The position numbers and the translations under genes are program-made. Below are positions 59,362 through 61,793 of a stretch of DNA of 64,000 nucleotides, piece after piece. The stretch is from Candidatus Daviesbacteria bacterium (GTDB taxonomy: Bacteria > Patescibacteriota > Microgenomatia > Daviesbacterales > UBA10151). Under the pieces are notes generated by a model. It ran no database searches. It had not been told where the DNA came from and was given only the letters and a program-made list of their open reading frames with translations. Positions within the stretch are counted from its first letter, which is position 1; each line of letters starts with the position of its first letter. Location: NCBI GenBank assembly GCA_028712705.1, contig JAQTPP010000003.1, positions 52 through 64,051 on the forward strand, read 5' to 3'.

Positions 59362-60289
59362 CACCAGAGAGCTAAGAAGAAGAATAAAGTCTGTTAAAAA
59401 TACAGCCCAGATCACCAAAGCCATGCAGATGGTGGCGGCAACCAAAATGAAACGGGCTCAATCCCAAGCCTTAAACGGCAGGCCGTATAGCTTTAATTTA
59501 GGCTATGCTTTAGAGAGATTGCTGCCTTTAGTTGCAACTGTCTCCCATCCTTTGCTCCGTGGCAATGAATCAAAAAACTTAGGCGTGTTGCTTCTGACCA
59601 CTGATAAAAGTTTGTGCGGGGCGCTGAATACCAATTTATTCAGGTTAATTACATCTTCGGATTTATTGTCTTCAAGCACTAATTTTTATACAGTCGGTAA
59701 GAAAGGCAGGAATTTTATAGCCCGTACAGGTGGTAATTTACTGGCTGATTTTGAAAATTTAGATACTGTAACTTTCCGTCAGGCAGTCCAGCTTTCTAAG
59801 CTTATTGTGGATTCATTTTTGGCTGGGGAAATTGGACAGGCTTTTATTCTCTATCCCCACTTCGGCTCAACCTTAAGGCAAGAACCTGCCAAAGTAAAAT
59901 TGCTGCCAATAGATTTAGAATCTGTCATTGCGAGCACTTCGACTTCGCTCAGTGTAAACTCCGCGAAGCAATCTGGTTCGGAAAGAGAGATTGCCACGGT
60001 CCGCCAAGGCGGACCTCGCAATGACAATGTGGGGGAATTTCTTTTTGAGCCGGATCCGGATAAATTATTGGATTACATTTTGGTTCATCATCTCCAGATG
60101 AAGATTTACCAATCTTTGCTTGAGACAAAAGCTTCGGAACATTCCGCCAGGATGATTGCTATGCAAAATGCTACAGACAGCGCCTTAGAGCTTGTGGATG
60201 ACCTAAATCTTACATATAATCAAATCCGGCAAGATTCAATTACCAAAGAGCTGTTGGAAATAACAACGGCCCAGGTGGCGATGGAATAA
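59354..60289 (+). CDS. atpG: F0F1 ATP synthase subunit gamma (with in-frame repeat-element insertion)
   Basis: [37 protein letters not shown]-terminal helix. 311 aa against about 290 typical. Confidence 0.9.
59923..60026. repeat. Family-2 palindromic element in atpG (TIR TGTCATTGCGAG...CTCGCAATGACA), encodes ...[12 protein letters not shown]
   Basis: About 104 bp. Internal palindrome GGTCCGCC-aag-GGCGGACC. A 35-bp core is shared with atpD at 60499-60534. Confidence 0.75.
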
Positions 60290-60332
60290 GGTATGTTCTC
60301 GCTCGTCGTTCGAACAATATTTTTCGAACGGA

Positions 60333-61793
60333 GTGAGAAATTACCACAAAACTATGAATAAAGGAAAAGTTGTTCAAATCATTGGTGCAGTGATAGATGT
60401 TGAATTTGACGAGAGTAAAATCCCTACTATTTATAATGCTCTGGAAATTGCCATTCCTTCCCGTCATCCTGAGCGAAGTGAAGGATCTAATCAAAAGATT
60501 ACCACGGTCCGCCAGGGCGGACCTCGCAATGACAAACTGGTACTGGAAGTTCAACAGCATCTTGGAGAAGGGGTGGTACGCTCCGTTGCCATGGGTCCGG
60601 CTGACGGGTTAAAGCGCGGAATGCTGGTGGAAGATACAGGCCATCCTATTTCCGTGCCGGTTGGAAAAGAAGTTTTGGGCAGGCTGTTTAATGTTTTGGG
60701 CGAACCGATTGATAATAAAGGTAAAGTTGCGGCCAAGAAAACTTTGCCGATTCACCGTCCTGCTCCTACTTTTGAAGAACAATCCACCGCATCCGAGGTT
60801 TTTGAAACAGGCATTAAAGTTATTGACCTGATTGCCCCATTTGTAAAAGGTGGTAAAGTAGGACTTTTTGGAGGAGCAGGAGTTGGAAAAACAGTGATAG
60901 TGCAGGAGTTGATTAGAAATATTGCCAGGGAGCATGGAGGTTATTCGGTTTTTGCCGGAGTTGGTGAAAGAACCAGGGAAGGAAATGATTTATACAACGA
61001 AATGAAGCAATCCGGGGTTATTGATAAAACCGCCATGGTTTTTGGACAGATGAATGAGCCGCCCGGGGTAAGGCTTAGAGTGGGTTTAACAGGATTGACC
61101 ATGGCTGAGTATTTCCGCGACTCGGAAGGAAAAGATGTTTTGCTTTTTATAGATAATATTTTCAGGTTTTCTCAAGCAGGGTCTGAGGTCTCAGCGCTTT
61201 TGGGCCGGATTCCTTCTGCAGTAGGTTACCAGCCCACTCTGGCTACGGAAATGGGAGCCTTGCAGGAGCGGATTACTTCTACCAAAAAAGGTTCAATTAC
61301 CTCTGTCCAGGCAATTTATGTGCCGGCTGATGATTATACTGATCCTGCTCCGGCAGCTACTTTTGCCCATCTTGATTCAACTATTTCCCTGGACCGCGGT
61401 TTAACAGAACAGGGTCTTTACCCTGCCGTAGACCCGCTTGCTTCAAACTCCCGGGTGCTTACCGCTGAAGTAGTAGGCCAGGAGCATTATGATGTGGCAG
61501 TAGGAGTGCAAAAAGTGCTGCAGCGTTATAAAGATTTGCAAGACATTATTGCCATTTTGGGAATTGAGGAGTTATCAGATGAAGATAAATTAACAGTGGC
61601 CAGGGCCAGAAAGATCCAAAGATTTTTAACCCAGCCGTTTTTTGTAGCAGAAACATTTACCGGAAGATCTGGCAAATATGTTCCCATAAAAGATACGGTT
61701 AAAGGGTTTAAAGAAATTTTGGAAGGTAAATATGACAGTAAACTCGAACAAGCCTTCTATATGGTGGGGACAATAGAGGAAGTAAAGAGTTAA
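60333..61793 (+). CDS. atpD: F0F1 ATP synthase subunit beta (with in-frame repeat-element insertion)
   Basis: [10 protein letters not shown]-loop, DELSDED-like EELSDED. About 20-aa N-terminal insertion. Confidence 0.95.
60462..60534. repeat. Family-2 palindromic element in atpD (CGTCATCCTGAGCG...CCTCGCAATGACA), encodes [24 protein letters not shown]
   Basis: Shares accacggtccgccagggcggacctcgcaatgacaa with the atpG copy (1 mismatch). Confidence 0.75.

Follow-up and report, generated by a model that had tools for sequence, protein, structure and literature searches.

The 64,000-nt stretch of a Candidatus Daviesbacteria genome studied here (contig JAQTPP010000003.1; further referred to as the window) carries an ATP synthase (atp) operon, and two of its genes, atpG and atpD, encoding the gamma and beta subunits of F1, each contain a GC-rich palindromic tract. 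Each tract is composed of two hairpin units with a short unpaired tag at each outer end, TGTC or CGTC, and such a pair of units is called a dimer below. The host genes, the dimers and their units are as follows.

59354–60289, plus strand: atpG, encoding the 311-aa F1 gamma subunit and hosting the first dimer (evidence from the open reading frame, ORF, PDB and AlphaFold)
59923–60026, plus strand: atpG dimer, two tagged hairpin units with the tags outermost (TGTC...GACA), 104 nt
59923–59974, plus strand: left unit of the atpG dimer, with TGTC tag, ATTGC...GCAAT outer stem and 27-nt apical segment (ACTTCGACTTCGCTCAGTGTAAACTCC), as read from the sequence
59988–60026, plus strand: right unit of the atpG dimer, carrying the shared core: AGATTGCCACG, inner hairpin GGTCCGCC-AA-GGCGGACC, TCGCAATGACA
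60354–61793, plus strand: atpD, encoding the 479-aa F1 beta subunit and hosting the second dimer (PDB, database record)
60462–60534, plus strand: atpD hybrid dimer, tags outermost (CGTC...GACA), 73 nt
60462–60488, plus strand: left unit of the atpD dimer, with CGTC tag, ATCCT/AGGAT stem, GA/GA internal loop and GCGAAGT mini-hairpin, as read from the sequence
60496–60534, plus strand: right unit of the atpD dimer, carrying the shared core: AGATTACCACG, GGTCCGCC-AG-GGCGGACC, TCGCAATGACA

Host Genes and Anatomy of the Two Tracts

AtpG matches gamma chains in PDB (E = 3.5e-51), is 100% identical to a gamma record of Candidatus Daviesbacteria, and its AlphaFold model matches gamma folds. Similarly, AtpD matches beta chains in PDB (E = 1.2e-222) and is represented by a Candidatus Daviesbacteria record of 479 aa with 100% identity and coverage. 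The start codon of atpD is the ATG at 60354, as in this record and in the orthologues; an earlier note on this DNA had given 311 aa for AtpG, which is correct, and 486 aa for AtpD, the length obtained from an upstream GTG. Both proteins are long for the lineage, as the Daviesbacteria baselines are 455–456 aa for beta and approximately 281–293 aa for gamma.

The near-identical 35-nt core that the earlier note had described in both genes is confirmed. It matches the window at 59993–60027 and 60501–60535 only, with no matches in 100 shuffles, and the similarity extends further, to 45 nt with 91% identity (41/45; 59988–60032 vs. 60496–60540). The palindrome of the core, GGTCCGCC-NN-GGCGGACC, is also found in both tracts and nowhere else in the window. 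The right unit of atpG has the layout AGATTGC-CACG-(GGTCCGCC AA GGCGGACC)-TC-GCAAT-GACA, that is, an outer 5-bp stem ATTGC/GCAAT, a small internal loop, a perfect inner hairpin and the unpaired GACA, which is TGTC on the other strand.

The left units, on the contrary, differ in both the stem family and the reading frame, with the layouts TGTC-ATTGC-GAGC-(27-nt apical segment)-GCGAA-GCAAT-CT in atpG and CGTC-ATCCT-GA-GCGAAGT-GA-AGGAT-CT in atpD. Since the left unit of atpD (CGTC-ATCCT...AGGAT) comes from a separate family, the two tracts cannot be regarded as one and the same element. Thus, of the earlier suggestion that one element had entered two F1 subunits, what stands is a repeated palindromic family lying in frame in both genes, and the part held in common is the right unit.

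The same applies to the termini. The inverted ends TGTCATT/AATGACA had been ascribed to both tracts and to a first family of palindromes in the window (family 1, see below). The family-1 ends, TGTCATTCTGG...CCAGAATGACA, are real, and the atpG tract is bounded by perfect inverted repeats of 12 nt (TGTCATTGCGAG at 59923–59934 and CTCGCAATGACA at 60015–60026; 4 matches vs. 0.12 expected), but the left end of the atpD tract is CGTCATCCTGAG (60462–60473), not TGTCATTGCGAG, and its termini are complementary only in part. The tags are TGTC at 59923, its reverse complement at 60026 and 60534, CGTC at 60462, and TGTC in the family-1 copies. As single-stranded DNA, the atpG tract folds with –26.8 kcal/mol (z = –4.7); the atpD tract folds less well (z = –2.1). 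The GC content of the tracts is 0.53–0.55 (0.55 in atpG, 0.53 in atpD), compared to 0.41–0.44 in the host genes (0.41 in the rest of atpG, 0.44 in atpD). A simple scan for perfect stems misses units with nested hairpins, and hence its counts were not taken as a census.

Inserts in the Gamma and Beta Subunits

Within their host genes, both tracts keep the reading frame and encode peptides of the form VIA...PRND. In alignments to solved gamma subunits from PDB, AtpG residues 1–195 and 228–309 are matched and residues 196–227 are not; the interval between KLLPL and YEFEP comprises 41 residues, compared to 11 in Bacillus PS3. AtpD has approximately 22 extra residues relative to solved beta subunits, all within residues 34–60. 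This bears out the earlier claim that other subunits lack residues at these positions, the solved gamma and beta chains having few or none there. The gamma insert is located in the loop that connects the last strand of the globular domain to the C-terminal helix, and the beta insert, in the loop joining two strands of the N-terminal beta-barrel.

In the AlphaFold model of AtpG, the predicted local distance difference test score (pLDDT), averaged over 10-residue blocks, is 43–61 for residues 191–230, and residues 209–226 are below 50; in AtpD, of whose model we used the N-terminal barrel with the insert alone, residues 38–58 are below 50. The flanking domains are well modelled both in gamma and in the beta barrel. 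Both inserts probably form disordered, floppy loops, and are likely exposed on the surface.

The chloroplast gamma subunit has a regulatory insertion in the same region: the EFLFEP segment aligns to residue 238 of chloroplast chain 22vl_D, compared to 203 in Bacillus PS3. The likeness of the atpG insert to this chloroplast and cyanobacterial insertion consists in the position only, as extra residues in the same loop, whereas the latter is a conserved functional protein segment and the former is repeat DNA that varies between close relatives.

As had been reported, the frames are open throughout both tracts, and these intact frames suggest that the ribosome translates them by read-through. An alternative is that the finished protein lacks the tracts, owing to intron-like splicing, RNA editing or translational bypassing; GC-rich mobile palindromes bypassed in translation are known from a yeast mitochondrion. 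Still, every intragenic copy that we have seen keeps the frame and has no stop codons, which skipping would not need, and group I and group II introns as well as inteins are far longer than the tracts, which have no Rfam match, making this alternative exceedingly improbable. The Rfam scan of the whole window yielded nothing at the gathering score, and a permissive scan of 59850–60600 yielded chance-level matches only (E of at least 1.8); as both scans were empty, an intron, a ribozyme or a known structured RNA was dropped as a candidate.

Occupancy and Turnover of the Two Sites in Related Genomes

To delimit the inserts, we considered the 120 proteins closest to each subunit. For beta, nearly all of them come from Daviesbacteria-like genomes, and the loop could be delimited in 118. 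It comprises 8 residues in 85 of these and contains an insert in the other 33, the window protein exceeding the 8-residue baseline by approximately 23 residues; the inserts of the 33 carriers fall into many unrelated sequence types. For gamma, the loop could be delimited in 110 proteins, and 60 of them have an insert that starts with V-I, encoded by GTC ATT or GTC ATC, at one position following ..IDLES; these inserts, too, are of many families. At the DNA level, the left boundary is GTC AT. throughout six related loci, the right ends are AAT GAC or ATG ACA, and the enclosed stems differ. The element is absent from gamma in locus L004 and from beta in L002. At exactly these loops of AtpG and AtpD, relatives encode the peptides VIPANAGIQ...DSRLRGND and DSRLRGNDK.

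In L129, which provides the nearest gamma orthologue, the same codon is occupied by the same dimer with identical flanks, but the inner hairpin, CTCGCC-TGC-GGCGAG, is different and equally perfect. The left unit of this dimer has the apical CTTG only, without the 27-nt apical segment, and no insert is present in atpD of L129. In the nearest beta orthologue (L130), the left unit in atpD is the same and the right unit has decayed; in L130, L001, and L003 the left unit is at the same codon as in the window, and in L001 its stem is ATTCT/AGAAT vs. ATCCT/AGGAT in the window, a two-sided change that keeps the hairpin. Nucleotide identity to the nearest relatives is higher in the element than in the rest of the gene (0.79 vs. 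0.69 and 0.84 vs. 0.78), with a deficit in more distant relatives; as the excess is modest, we do not claim a stronger constraint on the whole element than on the gene.

The orthologous dimers in L129 (atpG) and in L130, L001, and L003 (atpD) mean that the insertions predate the window genome: by this comparison of sequences, both sites were occupied before it split from its nearest known relatives. Hence the inserts are not fresh hits in this genome; the rare right-unit hairpin that they share points to recent replacement or gene conversion rather than to the two independent insertions that the earlier note had proposed.

The orthologous inserts also bear on the possibility of an assembly or binning artefact. 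The genome is metagenome-assembled, and a contig index of independent assemblies yielded no exact copy of either AtpG or AtpD. However, orthologous inserts at the same codons are present in independent ENA, NCBI, and Logan assemblies, the frames are intact, and normal atp sequence lies on either side of the inserts, so that we give an artefact next to no credence.

The inserts could also be lineage-specific functional loops under selection at the protein level, e.g., a regulatory gamma loop like that of chloroplasts, rather than repeat DNA. They are common at both loops in Daviesbacteria, and the gamma insert occupies the inter-domain loop of the chloroplast insertion. Such a role seems very improbable, as between relatives with 74–86% identity the peptide changes wholly and the nucleotide palindromes are kept, and as the same modules are found in unrelated genes and in intergenic DNA. 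Moreover, some close relatives are insert-free, and the inserts have low pLDDT.

Copies in Other Genomes and Metagenomes

The exact 28-nt core is rare. We have found it at three loci in contigs representing one genome per species, none of these loci being from the window genome, at one locus in JGI metagenomes, and at none in IMG/VR. In another Daviesbacteria genome (L006) it lies in frame in a gene for an ATP-grasp/citrate-binding protein, and in L007, in frame in a polyprenyl synthase gene; a Pirellulales genome (L008) has an intergenic complete dimer, and one metagenome contig (L131), an intergenic single unit. The earlier note had set against its reading the case of an ancient conserved insert, with the core absent elsewhere and close relatives carrying equivalent residues in divergent nucleotides. 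The outcome is mixed: the core does exist elsewhere, though rarely, and the divergent nucleotides of the relatives at the same sites are recognisable other families of repetitive extragenic palindromic (REP) elements, not a conserved protein loop.

The architecture of the right unit is much more widespread than its exact sequence. A search of IMG/VR with the pattern AGATTGCCACG-N10-20-CCTCGCAATGAC, leaving the inner 10–20 nt unconstrained, yielded at least 148 matches in at least 120 stretches, from contigs with 36–67% G+C. Among the matches listed there are 71 distinct inner segments, 56% of which form a perfect stem of at least 4 bp, compared to 3% of shuffles. The base following AATGAC is A, corresponding to the TGTC tag, in 131 of the 148 matches listed, and G, corresponding to the CGTC tag, in 12. 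The apical segment of the atpG left unit has no matches in IMG/VR. At the protein level, an exhaustive HMMER search with the gamma insert peptide produced two matches, one of which, a repetitive protein, was judged to be noise; the other is a uL1 protein from another organism (P0241), where an N-terminal extension of approximately 100 residues encodes the dimer subtype of atpG, including the unusual apical segment.

At the IMG/VR loci (L009–L128), on contigs classed as viral, the pattern often occurs right after a stop codon or beside units whose stems are of other families (e.g., GGATTCCCGC...GCGGGAATGAC followed by AGATTGCC...).

As both right units of the window have one rare inner hairpin, and the orthologous units of relatives have others, the two units appear to have been made alike recently: based on these sequences, the right units, 508 nt apart, were probably homogenised. 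The same similarity, 41 of 45 positions with a rare inner hairpin in common that occurs in only four other places in three public collections, could reflect one mobile element that has recently and independently transposed into atpG and atpD of the window genome. We consider this unlikely, as the left units differ in family and frame, so that only half of each tract is shared, and as the dimers at the same boundaries in the orthologues point to earlier occupancy.

Tagged Units Elsewhere in the Window

Other tagged units and hairpins of the window are listed below.

9367–9433, plus strand: family-1 TGTC dimer, intergenic, z = –5.8
10027–10062, plus strand: intergenic single unit with a nested hairpin (ATTCT-TC-TCCCGC-TATCG-GCGGGA-TC-AGAAT-GACA)
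11190–11258, plus strand: family-1 TGTC dimer, intergenic
28931–28996, plus strand: family-1 TGTC dimer, in frame inside gyrB (28706–30739, minus strand)
47196–47240, plus strand: intergenic single unit with the shared-core architecture (ATTGCGAGG, inner hairpin GCCGAT-TT-ATCGGC, CGTGGCAATCT), the tag decayed to TTTC
55812–55843, minus strand: complete single tagged unit (CTGTC-ATCCT-GAG-GCGATTAGC-CGA-AGGAT-CT), as read from the sequence

The family-1 dimers have the structure TGTC-ATTCTGG...CCAGAAT-GACA. The gyrB copy is inserted between the Toprim domain and the C-terminal domain, so that three of the five dimers in the window are intragenic. The region 9153–10127, which contains one family-1 dimer and one single unit, is approximately 1 kb without an ORF of at least 100 aa, and no Rfam RNA gene is found there.

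The remaining atp genes of the window are:

55852–56571: atpB
56595–56801: atpE
56944–57447: atpF
57444–57845: atpH
57838–59361: atpA
63218–63628: atpC, displaced from the rest of the atp operon

The unit at 55812–55843 had been described as a partial terminus upstream of atpB. It is instead a complete single hairpin unit on the minus strand, where GTCATCCTGAG is matched at 55830–55840; it ends 9 nt before the atpB start codon, touching the GGAGAG ribosome-binding site, and could affect translation initiation of the first cistron.

One more hairpin, of 44 nt (60296–60339; TTCTCGCTCGTCGTTCGAA...TTCGAACGGAGTGAGAA), lies in the atpG–atpD spacer, 64 nt long, which as RNA folds with –29 kcal/mol. 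The hairpin is kept with changes in L129 and absent in L002, L003, and L005, where atpG and atpD abut.

With the unit before atpB, the spacer hairpin and two dimers in one operon, the hairpins may act in the atp mRNA, affecting its stability, processing or the translation rates of cistrons, the peptide being merely tolerated. Indeed, REPs have been proposed to act as RNA elements (PMC3733652), and the two-sided stem change between the window and L001 would fit a structural constraint on RNA. However, replacement with another copy explains this change equally well, relatives lacking the insert at either site exist, and the same units occur in many unrelated contexts; we therefore regard a role in mRNA as quite improbable.

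In AtpA (window 57994–58014), five extra residues (G-PSADS-GR) are common to the window protein, L001, and L004, and absent in L002, L003, and L005. The corresponding DNA, CCTTCGGCAGACTCAGGACGA, is similar to the apical module of a REP unit, and hence this five-residue insert may be a decayed remnant. In L005, another insert, of 28 residues, follows DTIINQ in AtpA. Downstream of the atp region, a large glycosyltransferase gene contains single tagged units in frame in L001 (17402–17424, peptide DSGYNQND) and L005 (16687–16709, DSGFRRND); its products are called at 594 and 610 aa, respectively, and the site may be shared.

The gap between atpD and atpC (61797–63183) is filled by four minus-strand genes, encoding an unknown 103-aa ORF, a YafQ-like toxin, a RelB-like antitoxin, and a putative carbonic anhydrase (Pro_CA_2). 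The latter gene is kept between atpD and atpC in L001, L002, L003, and L005, and the toxin–antitoxin pair is not. Unrelated to the ATP synthase inserts, five genes at 36222–39773 have a common pilin-like hydrophobic N-terminus (GFTLVELLVVIAIIAIL..) and form a cluster of type IV pilin- or pseudopilin-like genes.

Relationship to Known Palindromic Repeats

Two superfamilies of REP elements have been distinguished, tagged with GTAG and CGTC, respectively (Di Nocera, De Gregorio, and Rocco, 2013, BMC Genomics 14:522; PMC3733652). In units of the CGTC superfamily the terminal CGTC is often TGTC, with CCTC allowed, and the stem “almost invariably” opens with two A–T pairs; the four families have a stem of 8–9 bp, a loop of 4–5 nt, and an unpaired 3-nt tail, mostly CCA. 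The units mostly form dimers with the tags outside and a spacer between the units, including heterodimers and hybrids; intragenic copies are known, and there is no linked or dedicated transposase (PMC3733652). The superfamily includes RPE-6 (CGTC-1) and RPE-4 (CGTC-4) of Rickettsia conorii and dRS3 of Neisseria, and has been reported in five phyla, Patescibacteria or the candidate phyla radiation (CPR) not being among these (PMC3733652). Peptides encoded by intragenic copies, as given in the supplement, are VIPAKAGI, DSRFRGND, DSRLRGND, VIAGLDPAI..KPGHD, and ..AGMT, and a single case of insertion at “about the same site,” in recB, is mentioned (PMC3733652).

Many of these features are observed in the window: an unpaired (C/T)GTC tag at the outer ends in both tracts and the three family-1 copies, the A–T start of the stem (ATTGC, ATCCT, ATTCTGG), the dimers with outside tags in the same five copies, the atpD dimer being a hybrid of two unit types, and the short loop CTTGT of family-1 units. 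Peptides close to the published ones are found in relatives at the AtpG and AtpD codons; those of the window tracts themselves, VIA...PRND, are only analogous. Other features differ. The stem is 7 bp in family 1, and the tract units have 5 bp, an internal loop and a second stem of 7–8 bp, so that the published length is not reached; instead of a 4–5 nt loop the tract units hold a nested hairpin or the 27-nt apical segment, the unit size being 27–52 nt; and the tail is ..AAT-C or ..AAT-CT, not CCA. In addition, across species many families occupy one codon of atpG or atpD, which goes beyond the recB case. Given the tag, the A–T start of the stem, the outside-tag dimers and the peptides of relatives, the elements belong to or adjoin the CGTC-REP superfamily.

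Other known systems offer further comparisons. As summarised in PMC10969869, RPE-1 of Rickettsia and its relatives (Ogata et al., 2000, Science 290:347; Ogata et al., 2002, Genome Res 12:808) are likewise palindromic repeats, which have entered numerous unrelated and functional genes in frame in a host-dependent bacterium with a small genome, and their peptides were considered to suit the fold and function of the proteins that contain them. They differ in size, approximately 150 bp as first reported vs. 73–104 nt for the dimers here, and in the unrelated organism. Miniature inverted-repeat transposable elements (Correia/NEMIS, ERIC, RUP, Nezha) are also short non-coding repeats with inverted termini, at times fused in frame, but have their own terminal inverted repeats of 15–30 bp derived from insertion sequences and target-site duplications, whereas the terminus in the window is 12 nt in atpG and imperfect in atpD, and neither a duplication nor a parent insertion sequence was seen there.

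In REPINs, two inverted REP units with a spacer form a larger hairpin, the presumed mobile unit (Bertels and Rainey, 2011, PMC3116915; PMC3337134), as in the dimers of the window, and a gene for a transposase that resembles those associated with REPs (RAYT) adjoins the atp operon:

55020–55730: Y1/IS200-like (RAYT-like) transposase ORF directly upstream of atpB (Pfam Y1_Tnp, E = 2e-8)

However, REPINs are GTAG-tagged, extragenic and flank their own RAYT gene, whereas the window copies are (C/T)GTC-tagged and intragenic. The hairpins at the Y1 ORF, AAACA..TTCCCAC(N6-7)GTGGGAA at 55033–55060, 55514–55541, and 55730–55757, constitute a family different from the (C/T)GTC-ATT units. We thus rejected the Y1 transposase as the mobiliser of the tagged units, as its flanks hold another hairpin family. 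L005 has two Y1 homologues flanking its atp operon, also with TTCCCAC...GTGGGAA hairpins, and no homologues of the window transposase were found at the IMG/VR loci with the right-unit pattern, among the matches listed. One hairpin copy lies inside the Y1 ORF (peptide SFPLDEWEG), where the L005 homologue has NPVSSYLIEFDSLESYEYSSY.

A full-text search of the available literature library, which also covered the terminal sequences, yielded no paper describing such elements in CPR, Patescibacteria or Daviesbacteria. The element class is already known, and what is new is the Patescibacteria/CPR host and the nested, variable inner hairpin, together with the unusually clear picture of numerous repeat families at a single codon position in either subunit.

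Proposed Origin of the Tracts

Taken together, we propose, with a probability of approximately 0.7, that the two tracts are inverted REP-type dimers in or next to the CGTC-tagged superfamily, which have spread as palindromic repeats and whose content at each site has been turned over. The units are a variant with a short outer stem (ATTGC/GCAAT or ATCCT/AGGAT) and an internal loop around a GC-rich, self-complementary inner hairpin that varies between copies, and would spread, or have once spread, as non-autonomous palindromic DNA. Copies in essential genes would survive only where the frame stays open and the loop tolerates 20–35 more residues; the ribosome would read through both tracts, the loop peptide being a by-product of the DNA palindrome. 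Both sites were occupied in ancestors of this Daviesbacteria lineage, and in close relatives the same codon holds different REP families or inner hairpins. The two right units of the window may have become alike through gene conversion or template switching, or through re-insertion of copies from one common donor, and the conserved outer modules would supply the homology for conversion.

Several observations weigh against this proposal. The nested-hairpin units fail the published stem, loop, and tail definitions of the four CGTC families. Direct repeats are absent from the flanks of all five dimers of the window, so that target-site duplications are not seen, and these dimers have no linked transposase. 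The exact core has just two copies in 64 kb and, as noted above, few in public data. The left boundary (..ES|VI..), constant in many relatives, fits one ancient insertion per site, and hence continuing mobility at both sites is suggested by family turnover rather than seen directly. The evidence of intact frames is biased, as broken genes would escape retrieval as full-length homologues. Finally, AlphaFold modelled AtpD as a whole poorly, with a mean pLDDT of 56.6.

The constant boundary itself may reflect either one ancient insertion with turnover in place or repeated targeting of the same site. A more far-reaching possibility is that the atpG and atpD codons are reusable landing pads, where (C/T)GTC-tagged dimers of different families, and their inner hairpins, are exchanged by a site-directed process, candidates for which are homing to an existing tagged hairpin and template switching between palindromes during replication. 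This seems rather unlikely; if true, it would mean that CPR bacteria continually remodel the loops of their core enzymes, and, as the gamma loop is the one that holds the regulatory insertion of chloroplasts and cyanobacteria, some repeat-derived loops could have been co-opted to modulate ATPase activity.

Significance of Palindromic Inserts in Essential Proteins

In-frame protein-coding palindromes were first described as a peculiarity of Rickettsia and later found sporadically in other phyla. Our observations carry this known phenomenon over to the CPR, bacteria of ultra-small size, with Candidatus Daviesbacteria as the example; the kind of element is not new. In a single 64-kb window the inserts are found in GyrB as well as in the gamma and beta subunits of ATP synthase, all three of them essential proteins.

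The atpG and atpD sites constitute a well-defined natural system for studying how tagged REPs move or get replaced, and the conserved outer module, combined with a freely co-varying inner hairpin, is a signature that may be used in the search for the enzyme recognising them. For annotation and structure prediction, such tracts should be taken neither for functional motifs nor for assembly errors. More generally, repeat DNA may explain a part of the length variation and of the odd low-complexity inserts in CPR proteins.

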